A stretch of 63,844 bases of DNA, counting the filler, from Squatina squatina (Eukaryota): the NCBI GenBank assembly GCA_031763465.1. It is 4 parts of 4 records of this genome, joined end to end, with 100 filler letters (N's around TTAATTAATTAA, not from the genome) between each part and the next. Parts side by side here need not be neighbours in the genome. Positions count along the whole stretch, not along the records: positions 34,584 to 51,272 come from JARFOE010000058.1; 3 more parts are not named here. One strand, written 5' to 3'. The notes beneath the pieces are model-generated. The model was not told the origin of the DNA. It did not search any database and worked only from the letters and a program-made list of their open reading frames with translations. Shown one piece after another: positions 16,000 through 51,372 of the stretch. How positions within the stretch are numbered: the first letter of the stretch is position 1; the number at the start of each line of letters is the position of its first letter. The position numbers and the translations under genes were made by a program.

Positions 16000-16099
16000 N
16001 NNNNNNNNNNNNNNNNNNNNNNNNNNNNNNNNNNNNNNNNNNNTTAATTAATTAANNNNNNNNNNNNNNNNNNNNNNNNNNNNNNNNNNNNNNNNNNNN
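16000..16099. other. Artificial scaffold linker N44-TTAATTAATTAA-N44
   Basis: 12-mer at 16044-16055 with stops in all frames; identical structure three times. Confidence 0.95.
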
Positions 16100-34483: not shown

Positions 34484-34583
34484 NNNNNNNNNNNNNNNNN
34501 NNNNNNNNNNNNNNNNNNNNNNNNNNNTTAATTAATTAANNNNNNNNNNNNNNNNNNNNNNNNNNNNNNNNNNNNNNNNNNNN
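34484..34583. other. Artificial scaffold linker
   Basis: TTAATTAATTAA at 34528-34539 with 44 N each side. Confidence 0.95.
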
Positions 34584-35779
34584 TCCATGGCTTGTATGAG
34601 CTTAAACAGCTGGAAGACTATTCTAGTTTTCTTGTGCACAACAGATGGAGTTTCACTGTATCTAAGCTTTGTATAAGGGGTTGTATGAGATGGGAAACAA
34701 CTTATTGAAAAAAAAAATTCTGATTTTAACAGTGAAAAGGAACTCTCCAGCATAACTACCCGCAAAAGTTAAGATTAATCAGTTTTTCTAGCAATTCATT
34801 CCTAATGTTGCACCATTAAACTAGATCCCTGTGACTTATTAGTTTTTTGTCAAATTTACATGCATGAATTATAAAATATGATCAAATAACCTCAATGTCT
34901 TATATTTCATACACAAAAACTTAGCATTTTCTTTGAAGCTGTAACTCATTGAGATTTGGTGGGACTATTTTAATACTTGTTCTATATATAAATTGATTAG
35001 CATTTTGCTTTGCTATACCAAATATTGCAAATATAACAAGTGAAATCTAATTTGATACTGGTGTCCTTAATTATTAGTCAGATTTTTGCACAAAGAAATT
35101 GTGTTTTTTGTGTTTATTGTGATGAGGGATGTTAGTACTGGGAAAATGGAACTTTCTTCCTATTTCAGGCATCCAGTATCAGGAACAGGCATTCTTAAGT
35201 CAGGTATAGTATGGATAGATGCAGAATTAAGCTCTTGGTACTCTCGCCCAGCAATGTGTCTCAGCCACAACCTGGGGCAAGCATCCCGTTACTGCACCAG
35301 TGACATTTTCCCATTCCTGTCACCCTGTGAGTTCTGACATTACCGATTGATGCTGAATTAGTGCTAGATTTTGCCTGTACTTGCAGAACTGGATTGAGAC
35401 CAGGCAAACTTTTTGTGTATGATTCTTACAGCTCTCAGACAGATGTTAAAGTTGTCCTTGTGTTAGTCTTTTAAACTTACCATAAAAATATCTTTGATCA
35501 TCTTGTTCAGGAAACCATATTGAAGAGACGGCTTCCTTTTTGTCTTAGATTGGTTTTTATTGTGTTCTTAAACCTGTATAGTACTCAAAACATTTTAAAT
35601 GTTTTAGAAAATTGGGGCAGCCATTTTTTCCCATTACTCTACATAATTAAAATATGTAGAATTATCAAACTTTGGGGGTGGTGGTTCTAAATGGATTCTA
35701 AAGTAAAGTGCATGAAAAAGTTCTAAGCCTATGGAAAGACACTTTCTGCATTTGAACATGATGCTTACCTTGTATTAAA

Positions 35780-35965
35780 CAGGAAATATAAGGTCTGTCA
35801 GCAACTGAAAAGACATAGGGTGAGGATTTTGCACGAGTCCTGGCAAGAGTTTCAACCCAAATTGTTAATCCATCTTTGCTCTTTCAGATGCTGACTGACC
35901 TATGCCTTTCTAACATTTACTGTGTTCACTTGAGATTGCCAGCATTTGCAAATTTTCTCCTTTTT
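35780..35965. mobile_element. Degenerate Penelope terminal repeat
   Basis: gttaatccatctttgctctttcagatgctgactgacc...ccagcatttgca resembles the reverse complement of 23889-23995. Confidence 0.5.
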
Positions 35966-36520
35966 GATACTAGCCTTACTTGCACACTTGGATGTAATTT
36001 CATACTGATGCATGCTTTCCGTTGTGCACGATATGTGTGTGTGTTCAACGGCAACAAAGACCCTAGTGGTGTCTCTTGTGTGTAATAAATGTACTGAGGT
36101 GCCTTAAGTAATGATGTTTGGGGTTAGTCACATCAATCAAACTGTTACTGTTGTCATCTTGGCCAACATTGAATACTGCTGGCTGTCTCTTGTGCTGCTT
36201 GCATATATAATATGTTCTATGGTAACTAAACACTGTGGCCAATGTAGCCATGTCCATTCAAATGAGGCAATGTATTTGTTGGTGTAGTGTGACCTGTTGT
36301 AAATATATATTGTACTGTACATAACTGGCCTCTGTAGAGCGTGGAAAATGCCTATTTTTGTGTTGTAAATTGTTTGCAGGTCTTCAATATCCAGCTGTTG
36401 TACTCCAAATATTTATGGCCNNNNNNNNNNNNNNNNNNNNNNNNNNNNNNNNNNNNNNNNNNNNNNNNNNNNNNNNNNNNNNNNNNNNNNNNNNNNNNNN
36501 NNNNNNNNNNNNNNNNNNNN

Positions 36521-36812
36521 TCCACTGGTAGAAGAGTCGGTAACCAGAGCAAAAGGTTTTAAGATAATTGACAAAAGAATCGGGGGGAGATGAGGAGATA
36601 TTTTTATGCAGTAAGTTATTATGATCTGGAATGCATCACCTGAAGGAAGGTGGAAGCAAATTCAGTGATAAATTTCATGAAGGGAATTGAATAAATACTT
36701 GAAAAAGAAAATCTTTTCAGAGCTATGGGAAAAGAATGGGACTAATTGGATAGCTCTTTCAAAGATGCAGCATGATGGGGCAAATTGGCTCCTTCTGTGC
36801 TTTATAATTCTA
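36521..36812 (+). mobile_element. Decayed CR1 LINE 3' end
   Basis: Homologous to 46090-46405. Confidence 0.75.
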
Positions 36813-38710
36813 GTAATATGATTTTTTTTAATGTTATTTAACTATGGAATGTTGAAGGGGCCCAGAGGAAAGAAGATAAATTATTGTGAGATGGAAAGGG
36901 AATTGAAAATTCTATTTGAGTTTTAGTAAAACTGATTAAGATGGTATGGAGCAGAAATTAATGCAAATGTGATTTTTAAAATTTGATAATATAGAGGATT
37001 CTGTGACCTTGAGTTTCTCACCTCTCCCTTCAGCTCTGACAGCATGAGTCTAGCCTATTGACGATAATCCCACAGAGACACAGTTGGATCCCCCTAACAA
37101 GGCAGAGCTTGGTTAATAATGGATATGCATTCTGTGAAGAAGTAGTTCTAGGCTTTCATTATGTGTAATGGTTCTGTTATATTTTAACTATTATAAACAC
37201 AGGATCCATGAATAGGTAGATTGATTTACCCCACGCTATCCTATAAATTCACTGCTGTGCAGCTCGTAACACAGAACCCAAAACTGTTCAAAAATATTGA
37301 ATAGTAAGTGTTCCAGCTTCATTAATCAATACAATGTAGATTATACATGGCTGTTTAACTTCCCAATAATTACAGCTGGAGTGTTTCTCCTGAGACGCCA
37401 TCCTTACTGTCAATTCACGTTATATTCTAGAGAACTTGGGGCAGATCTTTCTGGTGAGTTACGCTGGTGAACTGGTACAACCTGGATGGGCAATGGAGGA
37501 AAATTGGGCAGAAGCTGTTTTTGCTAGCTCCTGGTTACCCAATGCTACCTCCGAGATTTCCCACTGGAAATGATGCTGNNNNNNNNNNCAAAAATGGGCA
37601 GGTGTATTGTAATAAGCAACAATTTGCAGACAACATCATATGATATATTTCCCATCAGCTGCATCGTAGAAACAATAGGTGCAAGGAACTCCACCGCGTT
37701 CCGGGTGTCCACTGTTGTTATAAGTGGCAAGGGAGGGATGGAGGCTTAAAATGGAAATAGCCCCTCTGCTTAATGTATTTAATCACATTAATAAAAGTGC
37801 CAAATTCAAATTTCAAGATTTAANNNNNNNNNNNNNNNNNNNNNNNNNNNNNNNNNNNNNNNNNNNNNNNNNNNNNNNNNNNNNNNNNNNNNNNNNNNNN
37901 NNNNNNNNNNNNNNNNNNNNNNNTGTGGAAATATATTACTGTCAGGTTGGGGCTGCCATGGAGACGAGCTCAGATAACTGATTGCTGCCATCTGCAGGGT
38001 GGCTGATAAGTGAATTAAACATTGCTCTAGATTAGCACAGGAACCAAAAAGAGTTTAAAGCTGATAGGATTTACTTTAGAAAGATTGCTCCTTCAGTAAG
38101 TGCAGGGTCTCCAGCCGGGAACTTAATGACTGAGTTTGGGGCCAAACTCTGTGAGGAGAATAATTACCACAGAGAAAGTTAAGTACCTTCCTGTAACACT
38201 GAACTGTTTTCTGCCATTTCGGTTCTATGCCCTTAATCCTCCAAAAGATTTAAAGCTGCAGTGGCCCCCTTATTTGTTGCTTACTTTTTTCCCCTCAACC
38301 ATAAAATGGTCACTGAAAGCAAACATCTTGCTTGCTTTCCTTTTTTTCTGGCAATTTTCTCTTATCCTCATCCTCTTGGTACTTTGCACATGTGGCTATT
38401 ATTCATATTATTATTCTTTTTTTCTACAACCAACTGCCTTCTTAAACACCCCCACTTGTCCGCCACAATCTTTTCACAGTGTTTGAGATCATTGACTAAG
38501 CTATCCTTCTGCAATGCCCCATCTCTGTTGTCCAGCTCCATGTGCCCTTTTTGGTTCCGCTTCTACTTATCTGAATCTAGCCAGACCATCTTCNNNNNNN
38601 NNNNNNNNNNNNNNNNNNNNNNNNNNNNNNNNNNNNNNNNNNNNNNNNNNNNNNNNNNNNNNNNNNNNNNNNNNNNNNNNNNNNNNNNNNNNNACAACAA
38701 CATTTTTTAG

Positions 38711-39312
38711 CATTTGAAGATAGAATGGCCAAGTTATTCCGTGAGATTAACTTGGGTGAACTGTCAAAATTGAAACAACATTTACAAAATAAAGGGACAT
38801 TAATGACATTTAATAGAGTTTCAGTGAGGTAGAGCACAAAGGGGAATCATTTTCTTTTTGCTGTGGAAGGATCCATTTCAACTGCAAGGTAATATAGATG
38901 GAAACAGGAATGTGACCAAAACCATTCAGACAATCCTAGTAGGATAAAAGAGGGGAAAAGCTTATCAAAAGTCTTTGATTTCAGCAAAGTTGTTAAATTA
39001 ATTAGCAGAGCAAGTAAACAGAGGAACTTTTCTGATGTCTATTCACATTTTGAGGAGACCACTCAGACTACACGCAGCTGTCATGAGAATGATCTTCAGA
39101 CAATTCCTATTATTCCGGAGACTGGAAATGGAAAATGTACCTTCCTGTCGCAGTCTTCCCTCGCCTCAGACTCTGGAATGTGTAACCCTGTCAGTCAATG
39201 CAGCTCATCGGAAAGCAGGTATTCACACAAAGTAACAAGGGCTGAAATTTCAGCGAAGAGCTGCAACTCTGAACTACTTGGCTCCTTCACTCCTGTTTCC
39301 TTCACTTGTGAT
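38711..39312 (+). pseudogene. Putative divergent or decayed large N-terminal exon of ARHGEF9 (SPATA13/ARHGEF4-long-like)
   Basis: About 200 codons in one frame with only two stops (38830, 38890); DFSKVVKLIS resembles recalled SPATA13 DFDRVFKLVS. Confidence 0.4.
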
Positions 39313-39478
39313 NNNNNNNNNNNNNNNNNNNNNNNNNNNNNNNNNNNNNNNNNNNNNNNNNNNNNNNNNNNNNNNNNNNNNNNNNNNNNNNNNNNNNNNN
39401 NNNNNNNNNNNNTGACAAAGGTTTTTGTTGGCCATTGTATGACATATTGTATTACATTATGGTACTTTACCTTTGCAG

Positions 39479-39609
39479 CTGACACCACAGTTGGAACTGA
39501 GATGTCAAGAATCCACGAAAGCAATGGGAGTAATAAAGACTATGTTGGTTTCTGTCATGGCACTGTCAGGCCTCTGAAGCATGGTGCAGAGCAACTGCTG
39601 GTGAATAAG
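39479..39609 (+). CDS. ARHGEF9: ARHGEF9 upstream exon homologous to the Asef/Asef2 APC-binding-region exon
   Basis: ctttgcag| acceptor, AAG|gtaagg donor, phase-0 end fits the SH3 exon; DTTVGTEMSRIHESNGSNKDYVGFCHGTVRPLKHGAEQLLVNK. Confidence 0.72.
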
Positions 39610-40932
39610 GTAAGGTTTTCTTCAGAGGATTACCAATTTATTCCTGCTCTAAGACTTGGGGCTTAACTCTATTTAAAATCTCAAATAGCCCTCAACCACT
39701 TTTCATATTGTGTATTCCAGTGCTCATATATTAGCATGTAGGCCGGAGGCTTTTGACCATTTCCTGACCCTTCTCATAATGCTGCATCACAAAACCAGCA
39801 TAAACCATCAATTGTTTCTCCCTCATCTGTGTTCTTTTCAGATGCTATTGTTTGGAGGGTGAGATGGTTCAGGGAACAAACTTCTCCTTAGATATTACCA
39901 TTGCAGTTGATTAGCAAAGAGCCTCTTTGTCCTGCACCCCCAGTTTTCTCATTTGCTCAGGGATGAATCAATCGCCTGCAAGGAATGTAACTCACTAATT
40001 CGGTGAGGTCTCTGTATGAACATAGGGGCCCCAATTGATGTGCCTTCACGTCCGGGTTGTGCCGATCAACGGTGCTACCCGGGCGTGGAAGCAGTGTAGA
40101 GTCAAAAAATGATAAAACCCAGTATTGGGCCTGGTGCGGGAACTTAAAACGGTGGCAGCAGCGAGGAGTGCAGAAGCCCAGGGAGCTTTTGCAGNNNNNN
40201 NNNNNNNNNNNNNNNNNNNNNNNNNNNNNNNNNNNNNNNNNNNNNNNNNNNNNNNNNNNNNNNNNNNNNNNNNNNNNNNNNNNNNNNNNNNNNNTGCCTG
40301 TGGAATTGTAACTCCTCAAGAGTCAACACTTCCAGAGGAGAATGGAAGAAAATTGGAGACAGTTAGCAAAATACAACATTCATGGATTTATTGCTTTTTA
40401 CCATTATAGTACTGCATTTTTAAGTACTAACTATGCACTTGCAGAGGAACGCTTTGTTGATACACCGCACGGAACCAGACTTTCCCGGAACAATTTTCAG
40501 AAGGTGCCTGCAGCATACTGTTGATGTCAGCACTCTATTGATAGGCCGGCCCTATTATAAAAATACTCTTCTCATTAATTTTAAATGCTGCTGCTTTTCC
40601 TAAACAAACATGCCTTTTGAGATACTGAGGCAGAGAATTTTCGAGAGTCTGAGCAAGCAAAACATATGCTGCAGTAGCTTTAACTATACAGATTAAGACA
40701 AAAGAAAGAAATGCTTGTATCTATTTAATGTTTTCAAAAACTGAATTAACTTCTTGAAGAGCCATTAGTAATGTTATGAAGGCAAACATATCAGCCTGCT
40801 TGATATGTTCAAGTCCTGGAGAGGGGCTTGAACCTTAATGCAGAAGTCTTGTCAACTGAGCTAGCTATTACCTGACCGGTCCCAATTAAGTTCACAAGTT
40901 AAACTTCAATATCTATAATTTATTAAATATCT

Positions 40933-41236
40933 TGGGCTAGAAATTGATTGGCGTCCCGTCTGGCCGCTCACGGGGCGGAAGCTGGAATTTCTCGCGCCGT
41001 CACCCACCCCGTACCCCCCTCAGAATTCATTGCTCCGGGGTGTGAGCGAGCCACAGCACGTTCCCAGATGGAACTGGGGCGGCCAGACACTGGGCCACCA
41101 GGGACGATGGCAACCAGGCCACCAGCCTGGTGCCAGAAGAGGGGATAGTGGCCCGATCCGGCCAAGGGCCGCTATCAGTTGGCCAACAATGGACGACAAA
41201 TTAAGATGGCTTCCACAGGCACACAGGCCCTCCTCT
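40933..41236 (+). mobile_element. Harbinger-type non-autonomous element
   Basis: Starts gggctagaaattg; interior ggccaccagg...ccaccagcctgg...gatccggcc shared in reverse with 55698-55800. Confidence 0.65.
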
Positions 41237-41559
41237 NNNNNNNNNNNNNNNNNNNNNNNNNNNNNNNNNNNNNNNNNNNNNNNNNNNNNNNNNNNNNNNN
41301 NNNNNNNNNNNNNNNNNNNNNNNNNNNNNNNNNNNNTGTGTGTGAATGAAACATGCAATGAGTGTTACGAATAGAATGGTAGTCTACAGCAAAATAATGT
41401 TTCTCTATTTATGAGTTAGAGTACAGCTCACCTGTGAATTTGTCCCATCTAAGTTTTAGTACTGCTGTGCAAAGAAAAACTGTATGATGCCATAATTCAT
41501 TTACTTCAATTTTTTCATTACCTCCAATTTCATTAACTTCTTCTCTGAAAGCACTAACT

Positions 41560-41914
41560 CTGGCTGGGCTATAGTTCCACAGGTGTCAGTTGCCTTTCAT
41601 TACCTCATCCACTGGTCAGTCTTCAGGCATAAGCATAGAAAGTGAGTGCCAGCAGGCTATATGACTGCAAATGGGCATCATAACCAATCCCATTCCGATC
41701 CCCACCAGGTGTTCATCCACGTACCTTTTCCTGCAGGAGTTACTGGATAGAAATCAGGTGTGCGAACCCTGACTGAATTTCTTCTGCTCACTAGCCTGAG
41801 GGGGCTGAAGCCAATTATATTTTCCTGACTGCTGCCCCAGCTGAGATTAGATGATTTAGCACAGACCCTGAATCAAACTTGAGACCTTTTGGTCCGTCTA
41901 ACTCAGATACAGGC
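41560..41914 (-). mobile_element. Old tRNA-headed SINE
   Basis: Related copies at 49885-50270 and 53415-53810. Confidence 0.55.
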
Positions 41915-42014
41915 NNNNNNNNNNNNNNNNNNNNNNNNNNNNNNNNNNNNNNNNNNNNNNNNNNNNNNNNNNNNNNNNNNNNNNNNNNNNNNNNNNNNNN
42001 NNNNNNNNNNNNNN

Positions 42015-42843
42015 TCCCTCACTGGGGATCTCAGTCCCTCACTGGCGATCTCAGTCCTTCACTGGGGATCTTGGTCCCTCTCTGGGGATCTTGGTCCCTC
42101 ACTGGCGATCTCAGTCCTTCACTGGGGATCTTGGTCCCTCACTGGGGATCTCAGTCCTTCACTGGGGATCTTGGTCCCTCACTGGGGATCTCAGTCCCTC
42201 ACTGGCGATCTCAGTCCTTCACTGGGGATCTTGGTCCCTCTCTGGGGATCTGTCTCTCTCACTGGGGATCTTGGTCCCTCACTGGGGATCTCAGTCCTTC
42301 ACTGGGGATCTCAGTCCTTCACTGGGGATCTTGATCCCTCTCTGGGGATCTGGCTCTCTCACTGTGGATCTCAGTCCTTCACTGGGGATCTTGGTCCCTC
42401 ACTGGGGATCTCAGACCCTCACTGGTGATCTCAGTCCTTCACTGGGGATCTTGGTACCTCTCTGGGGATCTGGCTCTCTCACTGGGGATCTTGGTCCCTC
42501 TCTGGCGATCTCAGTCCTTCACTGGGGATCTTGGTCCCTCTCTGGCGATCTCAGTCCTTCACTGGGGATCTCAGTCCTTCACTGGGGATCTTGGTCCCTC
42601 TCTGGGGATCTGGCTCACTCACTGGGGATCTCAGTCCTTCACTGGGGATCTTGGTCCCTCTCTGGGGATCTTGGTCTCTCACTGGGGATCTCAGTCCCTC
42701 ACTGGTGATCTTGGTCCCTCTCTGGGGGTCTTGGTCTCTCACTGGGGATCTCAGTCCCTCACTGGGGATCTTGGTCCCTCACTGGGGATCTCAGTCCCTC
42801 ACTGGGGATCTCAGTCCCTCTCTGGGGATCTCAGTCCCTCACC
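42015..42843. repeat. Minisatellite, 20-bp unit actggggatc(tcag/ttgg)tccctc
   Basis: About 41 copies; explains the repetitive ORFs. Confidence 0.96.
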
Positions 42844-43487
42844 TCACCTGTGATTATAAATTTTATAACAGTGACCTGGGAAAAGCATTTCAGGAGGCTC
42901 GTGAAATATTGGACAATTTTTTCAGCTGCCTCCATTTTGTTGTGTTTAATTTTTTCCGATAATTGCACAGTAAAATGTGATTAAAACGAGGAAATGAAAA
43001 CATTTTGTTACCATAGCACACTGCAGTTATAAAACCACACCTCAGTCTATTCCCTGAGACTAAATGGCAGCTCTTTAATGACACTTGTCACTACTTTAAT
43101 CATTTGTTACCATAATTAAGAGCAATCCTGTTCCAGCAGACCTCAGCACAATGGTGTGTTTCCTGAAGAACATCTCGACTAGAATTACTCTCGCACAGCA
43201 CGACTGCCTCTGTTTGTGTGTCTAGTGCTCTCTCTGGTTGGTGAATTTTCCACAAGATCACAGCACTCAAAGAGTTAACACGGTGATCATTGTTTTGCAT
43301 TCTGGAAGCAAGCAAACAAACTGAAATATTCCAGTGACATTTATCTGTTATCCTTCAAAAGATACTTTGCATTTTTTCATTTTCCCATACTGTTAAATAT
43401 TCCCATCAACCACTGCCCCCACCCCACCTACCCTTCCAATGCTATCTGATATGTGACGACTAAATATTCATGACATTAGCTTTTCAT

Positions 43488-43560
43488 ACATGATTGGCAG
43501 CTGCATCCCGGCTTGCTTGGTCACTGAGTGATTAGCATGCGACGCCCGCCTCAGCTGTTG
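43488..43560 (+). promoter_or_regulatory. Candidate promoter of the ARHGEF9 MTL first exon
   Basis: TGATTGGC inverted CCAAT, E-boxes CAGCTG, GC-box-like cgcccgcct, 200-270 bp upstream of the uORF. Confidence 0.45.
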
Positions 43561-43760
43561 CCTCACACTGTGAGATACTGCTCACGGGGCTGTTATTCAG
43601 AAACTGGCACTCTCTCTTTCTTATCTACATACAGTGTGACGTGTAATTTCTGCCGAATGGGTTTTTGCAAGGAATTTAGTGCAAGTGAAGCACTTGAGAC
43701 TGATGCTGCAATCAGCTGGAATGGAATGAATTAGAAGGGGAAGAAGAAATCTCATCTGGT

Positions 43761-43955
43761 ATGGTGGATCTGCTGGACAATTTTAGTTCAGAGCACAGGT
43801 TGACATCACAGAGCCTGCCAGATCCGCATCTTGAGTACTACAGTCTCCTGCATTGCACCATGACCTTGGATATACAGACCATTGTTGTATTTGCCATTAT
43901 CGTAGTGTTGGTGCTGGTGAATGTAATTTTAATGTTCCTGCTCGGCACACGTTAA
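43761..43955 (+). CDS. uORF-encoded single-pass membrane microprotein (64 aa) in ARHGEF9 5' leader
   Basis: Strong Kozak ggtATGG; TM IVVFAIIVVLVLVNVILMFLL; stop 74 nt before the ARHGEF9 ATG. Confidence 0.8.
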   Translation: MVDLLDNFSSEHRLTSQSLPDPHLEYYSLLHCTMTLDIQTIVVFAIIVVLVLVNVILMFLLGTR

Positions 43956-44029
43956 TGGATGACTCTTGAGCTATTGGGTGACACAGCGCTTCAGAGGGAC
44001 AGCTACAGTATGGCCCTGCAGTGATATGA

Positions 44030-44038
44030 ATGACGTTG
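44030..44038 (+). CDS. ARHGEF9: ARHGEF9 first coding segment (MTL)
   Basis: ATG ACG TTG|gtatat; splicing to 49309 gives [19 protein letters not shown] vs recalled human [19 protein letters not shown]; in-frame TGA immediately upstream. Confidence 0.85.
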
Positions 44039-44236
44039 GTATATTATCTACCTAATCTTTTGTCGTGTCTTGTCTTTAATATGCCTGTAAGTCTAGTTAT
44101 TTGTTGGCTAGATCTTGTGTAATTTTTTGAAAGAGAATAGAAAAGCTCTTTTGTGGCATTTTTCTAGCAATAGAAGCTGTGCTCTGTAGAAATTTCTAGC
44201 AAGCAATTATTGATGCTTTGTGTATTACTGAAGGCT

Positions 44237-44436
44237 TGTGTGTGTGAGTGTGTGTGAGTGTGTGCAGTTTGTGTGTGAGTGTGGTTCGTGTGTGTGTGCA
44301 GTTTGTGTTTGTGTGTGAGTGTGTGTGTCTGAAAGTGTGTGTGTGTAGTTTGTGTGTGTGTGTGTGTGTGGGGGGGGGTGTTTGTGTGTGTGTCGTGTGT
44401 GTGTTTGAGTGTCTGTGTGTGTATGAGTCTGTGTAT
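44237..44436. repeat. Imperfect (TG)n microsatellite
   Basis: Visible. Confidence 0.93.
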
Positions 44437-44606
44437 NNNNNNNNNNNNNNNNNNNNNNNNNNNNNNNNNNNNNNNNNNNNNNNNNNNNNNNNNNNNNNNN
44501 NNNNNNNNNNNNNNNNNNNNNNNNNNNNNNNNNNNNTAACGTCTCATCCGAAAGACAGTGTAAACTTCTGTTGCTCTTTCCCTTTATCAAGGGATGATCA
44601 ACAAAC

Positions 44607-44856
44607 ATTTACTTAGGCACAGAACCAGTCGTCTGCTATGGAGACACAATTCATTTTTTGATCTGCTGTTTGATTTGATTCGATTGCCATCAAGGGCGGA
44701 GCGCGCCAGGAGCCGGGAAGCTATAACTTCTTCCAACTTACAGTTTGTATCGTTCGTAATCAAAGCAATCAGATCAAATCAAACAGCAGATCAAAAATGA
44801 AATGTGCCCCCGCAGCGGCTAAACACAAGCCGAACCCGTTCTGTGTCTGAGTAAAT
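44607..44856. repeat. Fold-back inverted repeat (probable MITE)
   Basis: Outer arms 44607-44625/44838-44856, inner ~42-bp arms 44645-44687/44765-44806. Confidence 0.85.
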
Positions 44857-44950
44857 ATGCATTCCTCAACCTCAATAAAAAAAAAAGCTTTTGCTGTTGG
44901 TGGGAGCTTGGTGTGTGTAAATTGGTTTTAAATTTTCCCACATTTCCAAT

Positions 44951-45162
44951 GGAGTACTGAGGGAGTGCTACACTGGTGGAGGTGCTGTCTTTCAAATGAG
45001 ACATTAAACTGAGGTCCTGTCTGCCTTCTCAGGTGGACGTAAACGATCCTGTGATGCTATTTGAAGTTTTCCCGGTGTCTTGGCTAATATTTATCCCTCA
45101 TCCCTATCACTAAAAGGAATTTATTTCTGAATTTTATATCATTGCTGAGACCTTGCTCTGTG
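44951..45162 (+). mobile_element. Deu-domain SINE fragment
   Basis: gtactgagggagtgct...ggtggacgtaaacgatcc...ccggtgtcttggctaatatttatccctca. Confidence 0.75.
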
Positions 45163-45172
45163 NNNNNNNNNN

Positions 45173-45742
45173 CAACAAAAACTTGCATTTAGATAGCATC
45201 TTTAACATGATAAAACATCCCAAGGCGCTTCATAGGTGCTTTCTGAAACAAAATTTGACACCGAGCCACATAAGGAGATATTTGGACTATTGGTCAAAAT
45301 CTTGGTTATTTGGAGGTTTAAGGAAGGTCTTAAAGGAGGAGAGAGGGGTAGAGAGGTGGAGAGGTTTAGGGAAGGAATTCCAGTACTTAGGGCTTCAGCA
45401 GCTGAAGGCACTGCCGCCAATGGTGGAGCGATTAAAATTGGGGATGCTCAAGAGTCTAGAATTGGAGGAGCGCAGAGATCTCAGAAGATTGTAGGGCTGG
45501 AGGAGGTTACAGAGTTAGGAAGGAATGAGGCCATGAGGAATGAGGAGGGATTTGAAAACAAGGATAACATTTTTTAATCGAGGCGTTGCCAGACCAGGAG
45601 TCAATGGTCTGGGGTGATGGGTGAAAGGGACATGATGCAAGTTAGGATTTGGGGAAGCAGAGTTTTGGATGAGCTCAGGTTTCCGGAGGGTGCAAGGTGG
45701 GAAGTTGGCCACCAGTCCATTGCAATAGTCAAACCTAGACAC
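45173..45742 (-). mobile_element. L2 LINE 3' part
   Basis: SRFDYCNGLVANFPPCTLRKPELIQNSA plus L2 tail. Confidence 0.9.
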
Positions 45743-45879
45743 CAGTGATTACACTTCAACAAGTACTGTAAAGCCATTTGGGAAATCCTGAGGTTGTGAA
45801 AGTTACTTTCCTTTTCCTTTTAGTTTGGATTGATTCAGGTTACAAGTCATTCAACTGTAGCTTTAAAATTGCTTTGCAT

Positions 45880-46407
45880 TGTATGCAGTTCTGATCACAT
45901 TACAGGAAAGGTGTAATTGCACTAGAGCGGCTACAGAGTAGATTTACCAGGATGTTGCCAGGACTGGAGAATTTTAGCTATGAGGAAAGATTGGATAGAC
46001 TGGGGTTGTTTTCTTTGGAACAGAGGAGGCTGAGGGAGACCTGATTGATGTGTATAAAATTATGAGAGGCCTAGATAGAGTGGACAGGAAGGACTTATTT
46101 CCCCGAGCAGAAAGGTCAATAACTAGGGGGCAGAGATTTAAAGTAATTGGCCCAAGGATTAGAATTGAGAACTTTTTTCACCCAGAGGGTGGTGGGGTTT
46201 GGAACTCACTGCCCAAAAGGGTGGTAGAGGCAGAAACCCTCATTGCATTTAAAGCATACTTGGATATGCACTTGAAGTGCCGTAACCTACAGGGCTACGG
46301 ACCAAGAGCTGGGAAGTGGGATTCGGCTGAAAAGTTATTTTTCGGTTGGCACAGACACGATGGGCCGAATGGCCTCCTTCTGTGCTGTAAATTTCTATAA
46401 TTCTATA
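45880..46407 (+). mobile_element. CR1 LINE 3' end
   Basis: [37 protein letters not shown]; tail ttctataattctata. Confidence 0.92.
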
Positions 46408-47651
46408 AAGTTCAGGGGGCAGAAAGAAATGCAGATTGTGCTGTGACAAATGCCTGTACATACAGTAAGTGGTTTACATACACAAGAAACATTACAAAGA
46501 ATAGTCTGTGGTACCAGTTGATTCTCATTATTGGCTTGTAATGGGGATTTATTGTTGCTATTTCTGTAAAACAACATGACACAGCTTTGCTAATCTGGCT
46601 TTAGTCATTTTTGAAGTCATAGAAGAAAATTCAGACCTTATTTTGTGTCATTTCCTATGTATTTTGACTAAATTATTCTGGTAGAATTTATAATGATCTG
46701 CATTTTCCTTCAGCCATTTTTAATGTTTGAGCTGCAAATGTGATTCAACAATCGGCAAGCTTGTATCCTCAGAAAATTAAAACATTGTTTGTCGTTTTAT
46801 AGTATTTTAAATGGAATAAAGGGTGGCAAATTATGCACAGGCATTTTGTAGCCCACCTCCATACACACTTTGCCTCCCCACTACTGACGAACACTACATA
46901 CACAATTCACCTTCAGGGCTATTACTGGGGTCCCTGTGACTGAAGAGACCTGAGACGTGTTTAAAAATACTATCTAGTCAGAGCAAGGAGGAGGTTCAGT
47001 CGTGATTCATGGGAGCTGTAAAGAGATGTCAAGAAGCAATAGGCAGGCCCTCTGCCCTGCTATCCTCTAACTGAGATGAAAGATAAAAGCATCAAATTTG
47101 GACATATACATAGAATGTGCATGTATGGTTGGCAATGAAAGAATATCATAGCTAAGTAAATCTCATCCAATCTCGCCATAGTTTCTTGCAGACTTTCCTC
47201 CTGTGTCGTGATGGGAATTGTTGCTTTGAAATCTTTCTGATGTGGTAACCGCAGTTATTTTTGGCTGCAGTTCACTGGCTCTATGTGGTCTCCCTGTAGA
47301 TACATGATAATAGTCTGCAGTAGATTTGGGGCCCTTTTTGCTTTTCAACTGTTTGCCAATAAATCCTTAAGTTTTTGGGTGGGGGGTTAGTGGACTTTAA
47401 TAATTCCTCCATTTTTTGTTCCATAGTTTTTGGAATCTTTTTTCAAGTCAAATACACCTTCTGCAACATTGGCCAATGAGCTAAATCAGCTACACTGGAT
47501 TCCATTCCTTTTATCAGCTAATTTTACACCAGCCAAAGTTAGGTCTCTGGATACAGTTGGAAAAAATGCAACTACATTTAATAGCCTTAAGTGAATTGTG
47601 AATTTTGGACATTAGAGATTTCTGAGAGAAACTGGTGGATTACAAAATTTT

Positions 47652-47825
47652 ACATAGAATTTTACAGCACAGAAACAGGCGATTCAACCCTAATGGTCTA
47701 TGCCAGTGTTTATGCTCCACCCGAGTATCCTCTCACCCTACATCATCTCACCCTACTTACATATTCTTCTATTCTTTTCTCCCTCTTGTACTGATCGAGC
47801 TTTCTCTTAAATGCATCATTCATAT
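47652..47825 (-). mobile_element. CR1 tail fragment
   Basis: acatagaattttacagcacagaaacaggcgattc. Confidence 0.6.
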
Positions 47826-49308
47826 CTGAGGCCTGAGTTCACATGCGTGTTTTCAATTTACTAAGAAGTGTCTAGTATTATTCATAATATTTAATATTTC
47901 TGTTAAATCCACTGTTTATTTAAATGAATCTGTTTACAAAATTAAAAAAAAATCTGCAAATGCTTTCGCTCAGCACTGACAATTAATTGAACTATTTTGG
48001 CAACAGATCCAAACTTTTCTCTTATTTTGATATCCTTACTGATCATGAGATTCTACTGGGCACTGTGGGGTAGATTGCTATGCGTTTCGCACATTTATTG
48101 ATTTCAAAGTGGAAGCCCTGTGGTCGAATTCTGCTCCCCATGATGCCATATTGATTGGGAGGCTCTATAGGTGTCCCTGGTGGCTGCCTGAAATAAATAC
48201 AGGCATCAGTTAAATATATTAATAAGACCCCTGTGCCTGAAATAGGACCCTCTTGTGAAATTGGTATCCGTGCACACCTGAAACGTCACTTCCTTAACTT
48301 GCTCATAAAATGATGGCAGGAACAGTCAGCAAGCAACCTTGATAAGNNNNNNNNNNNNNNNNNNNNNNNNNNNNNNNNNNNNNNNNNNNNNNNNNNNNNN
48401 NNNNNNNNNNNNNNNNNNNNNNNNNNNNNNNNNNNNNNNNNNNNNNTTTTATTTGTAATTACGTTCATTCATATTATTAAAACTATAATCAGGTCCAATA
48501 TTTGAATAAAGTTATTTCATTAAACATGTGTTCATAATTTACGACATGAAAATATTTAATTATTGGCTTAGATATCCCCTTACACTAATGCAAACAGGTC
48601 CTGCCTTGTTTGCATCAACGTGCACAATTGCTGGGCTAGTTGATGGGCAACTAGCCCAGCTCTGCACAAGGGACTGCTTCTTCTTGGCTTGCGTGGATGA
48701 CCTGCTAATGCAAATTGACAGACCTCAATTTCCAGATTTTGCACATGCGCAAACACATGTGGAAATTCCAGACTTGAAATAGATTTCAAAGGGAATACAA
48801 TGGTGTACTTTGAGAGTGTGCTGTCATACACACCACAATTTCCGGGCTCTTATCTGCACCCAGACAGATTCTAATTCCTGATCTTTTGAGGAAAGATAGT
48901 ACCTCATGACTGCTCTCATTTCAACCTTTATTATCAGTGCTACACCACTCTTTTTTCAATTCTGCCTGACTTTTCAAACCATCAGGTAACCTGGAATGTT
49001 TAGTTCCTAACCTTAGTTTCCTTTCTAAGGGAATGTAGTAAACAATTTTTGTTGAGTGTCTCAGCCATATTTGTTTTCTTCACAGACGAAGACTTTCTTG
49101 GCAATAATTTTCTTCTCTGTTGGGTTCTATTCACATTTTGTCAACTTTACCCAATCAGTACATCATATAATTATCAAGTCAATCAACTGCCAAATAGAGT
49201 GTGATCGTATACCAGAGATTGTGTGTGAGATGGTTTATATTCATTTGTGAAGATAATAACTTTAATCTCTTGTTATTTTTTTCTCCCCTTTTCTGTGTTT
49301 ATTTTTAG

Positions 49309-49478
<170 letters not shown>

Positions 49479-49884
49479 NNNNNNNNNNNNNNNNNNNNNN
49501 NNNNNNNNNNNNNNNNNNNNNNNNNNNNNNNNNNNNNNNNNNNNNNNNNNNNNNNNNNNNNNNNNNNNNNNNNNNNNNAAAATAGGATTGATATTCTGGG
49601 GGATTGAAAAGCAGGGTGCAGGAGAATACAGGGGTGAAACATTCTAGACTTACTGCTGGAAGGAGCAGATTAGAGTGATTGGTCAGTTGTTCCAATTTTC
49701 CATTTTGTTTTAATGTAGCAGTGGAAATATTTTGATATTAATCTCTCCTTCTCCATTTTTCTGCTCATCTCAGTAATGTCAATGCATAGCTCTAACACCC
49801 ACCAATAGGACTATTCTGCCTAATGGGTCAAATTCAATGGAATAGTTTGTCCAGTTGTGTTTCAGCTCCTTAGAATGTATTTCT

Positions 49885-50270
49885 AGGAGCTGTCTGAGTG
49901 ACGCAGTCAGTAAGTACCATGTAACTGAGCCATACAGTTCAAAAAGACTCAGATTCAATAATGGTCTATATTAAACTAGCTGGGGCTACAATAGACATGC
50001 TACAAATGTTTCCAATGTCTCCTGGACCAGAGATAGAAAAATCAGTTAGAGCTGCTGCTCCGAATTTCTATCCTATGATGCCGTCTACAAAATGTGCACA
50101 TTGCACAGTGATAGGATCAGGTTTGAGTGCAATGCTCCTCTATGGATGAGTAACCTGATGATATTCATTATCTGGGCTCACATGAGTGGAATGACCATTT
50201 TAGCAAGGTTTTGGTGGACTGATGGTGCCCTTGGCAGCATGCCAGCACCTTCAGGAAAGAAGGGCAAAAA
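49885..50270 (+). mobile_element. Old tRNA-headed SINE
   Basis: Related to 41560-41914 and 53415-53810. Confidence 0.5.
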
Positions 50271-50554
50271 AAGGCTTCCTTTGTATTGTATCTTTGCACC
50301 TCAATATCACCAGATACCTGTGTGAAAATTACCCCTTGTGAAAGTAATGATAATAGTAATCATTTTCACTGGAAAACCTGCCATGGTCCTGAAAGTTCAG
50401 ATAATAATCACTTATAAATTAGCTTCTTGGGATTTTTTCCCCCTAAGTTATTTAAATGAAGTCAGTAAGCTGTTGTATTATCCACTTTAGAGCCACTAAA
50501 ATAAATTGATATCAGCCAATTATCCATACTCTGTTTTTCTTTGTTTAATGGCAG

Positions 50555-50746
50555 CTTTGGGTGAACCAGGAAGACACTGTAGATGAAGCCAGTAGTGAGA
50601 TTCAAAATGGGCATCTGGACCCAAACTCCGACTGCCTGTGCCTCGGCAGAAGTATCCAGAACAGAGACCAGATGAGGGCAAATGTCATCAATGAAATTAT
50701 GAGCACAGAACGACACTACATTAAACATCTGAAGGACATCTGTGAG
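50555..50746 (+). CDS. ARHGEF9: ARHGEF9 exon (SH3-DH linker, start of DH domain)
   Basis: ggcag|CTT ... GAG|gtaata; 192 nt; LWVNQED...[30 protein letters not shown]. Confidence 0.96.
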
Positions 50747-51272
50747 GTAATAATAACATATCTACAGCTCCAAGTTTCTTCATACTGATAATATAAATAG
50801 CATGGGAGAGTTCTGATTGCTGCACTTTTGTTCTTGGGAACATTCATTGTTACTCTTCAAAAAATCAATAGGTCCAGATTATTTAATTATTAATAAATTA
50901 TGTCCCTGCAGCTAAGACTTAAAGCTGCAGTATGTTAAAGAATCAGAAGGGATGAATTGCTTTGAGTCTTCACTCCTGTGCCACTATGAATTTAGCAGAA
51001 CTTCAATGGAACTTGTGTAAGTGGGGTTCCAACAAATTTCTGCTGAAGTTACGATCACACAGCAGGAAAAGACTGAAGGAAATTCTCCCCCGTGGAGTTC
51101 TTAAGTCTTATTTATGAAGTGCCATCATCTTTTAATAAAAATCCAAGGCATCAGTGAATATTTTGAAAAGAGACCTAATTTTAATCCTCACTCTGATGCT
51201 ATTTGCCAGCACAAATCAATATATTTTTTTAAATTTATATATCCTCCTTAATCTCTTGTGGCATTGCTTGTG

Positions 51273-51372
51273 NNNNNNNNNNNNNNNNNNNNNNNNNNNN
51301 NNNNNNNNNNNNNNNNTTAATTAATTAANNNNNNNNNNNNNNNNNNNNNNNNNNNNNNNNNNNNNNNNNNNN
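51273..51372. other. Artificial scaffold linker
   Basis: TTAATTAATTAA at 51317-51328 with 44 N each side. Confidence 0.95.

Follow-up and report, generated by a model that had tools for sequence, protein, structure and literature searches.

A uORF in the leader of ARHGEF9, the collybistin gene, was named SPICA in 2018 by Kitano et al. (bioRxiv 10.1101/325571). Both ORFs of the mouse leader are translated, the mouse peptide was detected with two antibodies in the brain only, and SPICA-null mice were characterized by lower body weight, impaired nursing, and raised anxiety (bioRxiv 10.1101/325571). SPICA was proposed to be the first vertebrate uORF with an autonomous function, although its authors state that what the peptide does at the molecular level was not demonstrated (bioRxiv 10.1101/325571). 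This preprint is the sole functional source, and no follow-up to it was found in literature searches.

The peptide has also been recorded in surveys of small ORFs. The mouse Arhgef9 utr5 sORF of 59 aa was scored at 474.8 by PhyloCSF with its frame kept in 45 species, and its start and stop are kept in 44 species as far as frog and coelacanth, a set that included no shark (PMC4568590, in part). In zebrafish, a 31-aa 5′ UTR sORF of arhgef9b is kept in five teleosts (PMC4568590, supplementary file 12, in part). The identical human ORF is known as cXriboseqorf35, which is conserved with a PhyloCSF score of 431.65 across mammals and is listed with 0 mass-spectrometry studies in the table of Sandmann et al. 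(PMC10032668, in part). The gene plan of mouse and zebrafish begins with a small exon, followed by one that carries the uORF and the main start and then by a 180-nt exon (PMC4568590, in part).

The window analysed here is a stretch of 63,844 nt, filler included, from Squatina squatina (GCA_031763465.1). It is composed of four scaffolds, and the relevant part spans 34584-51272 (JARFOE010000058.1). The artificial linkers at 16000-16099, 34484-34583, and 51273-51372 consist of 44 N, a 12-base spacer with stops in all frames, and another 44 N, and features on either side of them are not to be read as syntenic; many gaps of 100 N occur besides these linkers. Table 1 collects the coordinates of the features at this locus.

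Table 1. Features of the ARHGEF9 leader region in the Squatina squatina window.
Feature	Position	Strand	Remark
Long N-terminal ARHGEF9 isoform exon, part	38902..39312	+	77% with Cetorhinus maximus arhgef9a X2 and 63% with a Chiloscyllium punctatum protein
Last long-isoform exon	39479..39609	+	joins the SH3 exon directly (protein P0014, residues 662-705 then 705-760)
Putative exon of 404 nt (382 nt in mouse) with uORF and main start	43635..44038	+	acceptor 16/20 pyrimidines
SPICA uORF, 64 aa	43761..43955	+	N-terminus extended by about 5 residues relative to the 59-aa form of mouse/human
R-x-x-S motif, residues 13-16, candidate kinase site	43797..43808	+	in the low-confidence N-terminal part; also in the mouse/human peptide
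CAG as candidate internal acceptor, 38 nt ahead of Met34	43819..43822	+	same offset as the zebrafish exon 5′ end
Short form of 31 aa from Met34, helix only	43860..43955	+	start and length match the zebrafish arhgef9b 5′ UTR sORF
Predicted transmembrane helix I41-L61	43881..43943	+	hydrophobicity; pLDDT 94-95 over residues 41-60
Asn54 codon, within VNVIL	43920-43922	+	unchanged in published mouse, human, and zebrafish peptides
Spacer with four further ATGs (43955, 43959, 44010, 44026)	43955..44029	+	passed over in the sequence-only reading
ATG 43955			overlaps the SPICA stop; 4 aa
ATG 43959	43959-44024	+	21-aa ORF in the SPICA frame, one codon past its stop
ATG 44010			strong context; 4 aa
ATG 44026	44026-44032		overlaps the main start in another frame, four bases ahead of it and in better context; would run for 14 codons if spliced at 44039
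Start of collybistin (MTL) in weak context, then phase-0 GT donor 44039	44030..44038	+	presumed donor choice
SH3 exon of ARHGEF9, interrupted by a gap in the assembly	49309..49478	+	56/56 identical to both shark long-isoform proteins
ARHGEF9 exon that extends into the DH (RhoGEF) domain	50555..50746	+	collybistin structure 4mt6

The 64-aa ORF first noticed in a sequence-only reading of this DNA is real, and it is almost certainly the shark orthologue of SPICA, which is also the already reported ARHGEF9 leader microprotein that the reading had suspected (bioRxiv 10.1101/325571). The peptide is identical to the published mouse/human sequence at 43 of 59 positions in an ungapped hand count (73%), rising to 28 of 33 from Cys32 on, where all five differences are hydrophobic swaps. 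Hand counts against the zebrafish arhgef9b 31-aa sORF, aligned from Met34, and against the antigen peptide of the SPICA preprint gave 18/31 and 15/26 identities, respectively (bioRxiv 10.1101/325571 for the antigen). Three in-frame methionines (Met1, Met34, and Met58) are found as in mouse; the two internal ones align, while the first is shifted upstream, and the position of the mammalian start codon is occupied by a non-ATG codon in the shark copy.

The length of the ORF by itself is unremarkable and within chance: the window holds 49 ATG-initiated ORFs of at least 64 aa, and 30 shuffles gave 22-41 (mean 31). Such commonness, together with the location of the ORF within an intron of the annotated long isoform, would suit a chance or untranscribed intronic ORF in Squatina squatina. 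This possibility is practically negligible, given the identity to the mammalian peptide with its conservative changes and same stop position, and given a second intact copy in the protein collection that is identical at 62 of 64 residues (97%). Database searches agree on the existence of relatives of the peptide: one yielded two of three candidates, of which only the 97% match was aligned, and a representative-sequence search run without a profile gave 11 candidate clusters at E up to 0.001, five of them at 1e-10. Longer or fused forms of the peptide were found among 0 of 54 candidates, which is weak evidence. Pfam gave a single weak match to the peptide (Piezo, E 0.21) and one to the 31-aa short form (E 3.5); neither form matched any PDB sequence, the ESM Atlas search with the peptide gave no usable match, and Foldseek found nothing among PDB structures.

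The ancient origin that had been claimed for the peptide is borne out by the mouse frame kept in 45 aligned species to frog and coelacanth, by the teleost form, and now by the shark. Coding selection is judged here from the published PhyloCSF scores of other species. As marked by the shark copy, the helix with its VNVIL, Met34, and the same C-terminus have been kept since cartilaginous and bony fishes diverged.

The assignment of the ORF to an ARHGEF9 leader holds, with collybistin-matching SH3 and DH exons lying downstream in frame with the ATG at 44030. The exon from 49309 matched the ARHGEF9 SH3 domain (PDB 2ysq) with an E of 6e-31, scoring 108 bits for ARHGEF9 vs 87 for ARHGEF4, and the exon 50555-50746 matched collybistin (4mt6) with an E of 3e-35 and 122 vs 42 bits. 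The donor at 44039 joins the ATG in frame to both exons; another in-frame donor, at 44087, is frame-compatible with both exons as well and would make the first coding piece 19 aa long. The shark ORF is ATG-initiated, does not overlap the main ORF, and lies upstream of the ARHGEF9 start and before the SH3 exon, with 74 nt from its end to the collybistin start codon. This spacer and the annotated mouse and zebrafish exon coordinates are the basis on which the locus is consistent with a uORF and a collybistin start in the same shark exon. By analogy with mouse, in which this has been shown, one shark mRNA presumably carries SPICA and collybistin, and the shark layout fits.

The longer ARHGEF9 products have a different 5′ structure. 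The search with the upstream long-isoform ORF gave two matches from 132 candidates, both of them shark proteins, one named arhgef9a. The shark long isoforms are 1041-1183 aa long, and one source names its protein SPATA13 though the SH3/DH exons match collybistin. The long isoforms splice from 39609 to the SH3 exon, so the uORF exon would belong to a separate, shorter isoform; as judged from these joins, the annotated long shark isoform skips the SPICA exon, which sits within its intron. The end of the exon 39479-39609 resembles what we take to be the region before the ARHGEF4 SH3 domain (APC-binding region), a likeness for which no PDB match was returned.

Several other elements were noted in the window. 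A minisatellite of 41 copies of a 20-bp unit occupies 42015-42842, approximately 0.9 kb upstream of the uORF, and a TG microsatellite of approximately 97 copies (44237-44434) lies near the beginning of the intron that follows the start exon. Fragments at 45895-46397 (+) resemble what is presumably the reverse-transcriptase end of a LINE common in cartilaginous fish. On another scaffold, a single-exon ORF at 8147-8491 (+), 115 aa when counted from around the first Met of the region, encodes a KCNE-like potassium-channel subunit (Pfam ISK_Channel, E 7e-6). An exon at 445-690 (+), which had no match in a Pfam search, resembles what we take to be the C-terminal part of PAX3/PAX7.

The start codons of the leader largely follow the sequence-only reading. 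The first ATG of the uORF has the strong Kozak context described there (G at -3 and G at +4), and the main ATG is weak as stated (T at -3 and A at +4). The second ATG at 43860, which had been called good, is in frame with A at -3, but A at +4 makes it adequate rather than strong; the third in-frame ATG (43932, Met58) has a weak context. The putative 404-nt exon contains 12 upstream ATGs in all. Ribosomes may start at the strong first ATG and produce the 64-aa form or start at Met34 and produce the 31-aa form, and collybistin would be reached by ribosomes that pass as many as 12 upstream ATGs through leaky scanning or reinitiation. Read-through into the 21-aa ORF of the spacer, which has no Pfam match, would lengthen the tail of SPICA. 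A structured RNA element in the stop-to-start spacer was considered and rejected, as its folding was no better than that of shuffles (z +1.45; 187 of 200 shuffles fold as well).

A leader of this kind could act in cis, with SPICA as a conserved-peptide uORF that throttles collybistin and the peptide mattering as a nascent chain. The strong uORF context against the weak main context would suit such a role, a class of conserved peptide uORFs has been described with such roles (PMC7530721, in part), and mouse reporter output rose on deletion of the whole uORF region, the only change that raised it, so that some cis effect of the region exists in mouse (bioRxiv 10.1101/325571). On the other side, replacement of all three SPICA ATGs by TAG left the mouse reporter and brain collybistin unchanged while behaviour was altered, and SPICA protein reaches immunoblot level and varies independently of collybistin (bioRxiv 10.1101/325571). 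Four other ATGs also lie nearer the main start. The nascent-chain explanation is therefore quite improbable, and the earlier claim that the uORF limits collybistin translation is contradicted in mouse by the ATG-to-TAG nulls (bioRxiv 10.1101/325571). If the many upstream ATGs together set collybistin output, SPICA's own ATGs would contribute little.

The shared mRNA might instead be accounted for by SPICA being a membrane cofactor dedicated to collybistin or to the gephyrin/GABA-A receptor scaffold. The linkage holds in this shark as it does in mouse, human, and zebrafish, and the anxiety phenotype overlaps between the two mouse mutants (bioRxiv 10.1101/325571), both of which speak for a cofactor. 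SPICA-null mice, however, have a normal collybistin level and a normal distribution for collybistin as well as gephyrin and GABA-A gamma2, including normal hippocampal staining of all three (bioRxiv 10.1101/325571). The two proteins are also uncoupled by region and age: mouse SPICA differs between brain regions and comes up after postnatal day 12, whereas collybistin levels are even (bioRxiv 10.1101/325571). A dedicated cofactor is thus highly unlikely. The co-production with collybistin that had been proposed for this locus is too loose a term: one mouse leader encodes both products, but their levels are uncoupled, and the long shark isoform skips the exon.

The reading that we favour, and regard as probable, combines SPICA orthology with a tail-anchored, trans-acting small membrane subunit, as modelled from the peptide. 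A membrane microprotein with a single hydrophobic helix, as claimed before, is supported by hydrophobicity and predicted structure. The 21-residue run I41-L61, a predicted helix, has a mean Kyte-Doolittle value of 3.44, the highest 21-mer among 271 ORFs of at least 30 aa in the window (runner-up 2.41), which was equalled by no ORF in 30 shuffles. It is followed by the three-residue tail GTR that had been described. The asparagine placed at the centre of the helix by the same reading is Asn54, which is off-centre at residue 14 of the 21, 10 residues from the C-terminus. An AlphaFold model built on a two-sequence alignment has a helix at residues 22-62, with high confidence over 41-60 and low confidence over 10-19. 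A homodimer prediction for residues 30-64 scored 0.10 against a mark of 0.32 and counts neither for nor against self-contact.

In tail-anchored proteins, a helix close to the C-terminus inserts post-translationally and leaves the N-terminus cytosolic. The SPICA helix ends three residues before the stop and so could not leave the ribosome before termination, which points to post-translational tail-anchor insertion. The predicted topology is a cytosolic N-terminus, most likely in the ER/secretory system, and the peptide would most likely act in trans as a small regulatory subunit. Conservation is centred on the helix and VNVIL, and zebrafish has a helix-only form, which suggests that the work is done by the helix. 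An Asn buried in a helix points to specific contact between helices; through the invariant VNVIL face, which holds this buried Asn, the peptide may contact a membrane partner or itself. The flexible N-terminal part, with the R-x-x-S site that we presume to fit a kinase-site consensus, might tune this helix contact.

Such a plan recalls the regulins, and SPICA could be a neuronal regulin-like peptide on a SERCA-type calcium pump, its long and short forms paralleling phospholamban and sarcolipin. The plan of a small tail-anchored peptide with a helix Asn and an N-terminal kinase site is shared, and the short form has 31 aa just as sarcolipin ends at residue 31 (PMC8396278, in part). A C-terminal single transmembrane helix in a small peptide, one of the marks of regulins, is also predicted for SPICA. 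Its polar residue, by contrast, is out of register with phospholamban Asn34 and sarcolipin Asn11: 10 residues follow Asn54 vs 20 after sarcolipin Asn11 (PMC8396278, in part), which would place the two asparagines in different halves of the membrane. No regulin match was found in Pfam (E up to 10) or among PDB sequences, searches in which weak matches were filtered and for which regulins are divergent. A regulin-like role on a calcium pump is accordingly very unlikely and survives as a lead, and a tail-anchored, trans-acting subunit remains the preferred reading.

The two lengths of this subunit may also arise by splicing. The zebrafish arhgef9b exon begins 38 nt before the sORF Met (PMC4568590, in part), and the shark CAG acceptor has the same offset. 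With the candidate donor at 43570, it would define an intron of 252 nt vs 248 in zebrafish. Its tract is weak, with 10/20 pyrimidines vs 13-17 at four other acceptors, local YAG frequency is approximately 3% of positions, and the 38-nt match was spotted post hoc with indels possible. These observations hint at spliced long (64-aa) and short (31-aa) forms. A wider proposal can be formulated, in which SPICA would be a jawed-vertebrate-wide tail-anchored neuronal regulator of two lengths, the long form having a phosphorylatable cytosolic arm and the 31-aa form consisting of the helix alone, selected by leaky scanning or by an acceptor within the ORF common to shark and zebrafish, regulating a pump, channel, or receptor through its buried Asn, and accounting for part of the ARHGEF9 deletion phenotypes. 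Taken as a whole, this proposal is rather unlikely.

The bicistronic ARHGEF9 leader and its peptide were already known, and the shark copy appears to be a new member. The main text of the SPICA preprint has 0 occurrences of "transmembrane," "hydrophobic," "localization," "shark," and "fish" (bioRxiv 10.1101/325571). A cartilaginous-fish copy, the C-terminal helix, and a molecular partner are absent from that main text and, among the entries listed and their abstract openings, from the ARHGEF9/collybistin small-ORF literature searched; the preprint supplement (Figure S2), the cited patent, or the supplement of PMC7530721 may hold them. The correspondence of the Met34 form to the zebrafish 31-aa sORF, the shared 38-nt offset of the CAG, and the long shark isoform skipping the SPICA exon were likewise not found in the literature searched. 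The shark copy marks the features retained since the split between cartilaginous and bony fishes and narrows the question of function to specific features. It also affects how ARHGEF9 deletions and variants of the 5′ UTR are interpreted in neurodevelopmental disease, as these may remove two products.

Among known systems, the cis-acting conserved-peptide uORFs share with SPICA a conservation at the peptide level over long evolutionary time (PMC7530721, in part); unlike in that class, losing the translation of SPICA in mouse left main-ORF output unchanged. The regulins phospholamban and sarcolipin share with the predicted SPICA a small, tail-anchored, single-helix architecture in which the helix carries an Asn and the N-terminal part has kinase sites; SERCA binding is what defines regulins, whereas SPICA is likened to them on its predicted body plan, without detectable sequence similarity (PMC8396278, in part). 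The zebrafish arhgef9b sORF is closer, starting at the Met that matches Met34, with the same length and VNVIL kept; the annotated zebrafish exon encodes the short form only, whereas the shark genome has the long form too. Mouse/human SPICA is the nearest counterpart. The shark peptide has 64 aa vs 59, with a start four to five codons further upstream, and the distance from its stop to the exon end is 83 or 131 nt vs 190 in mouse; the two belong to the same gene, lie in a leader exon before the 180-nt SH3 exon, and have the same C-terminal end.
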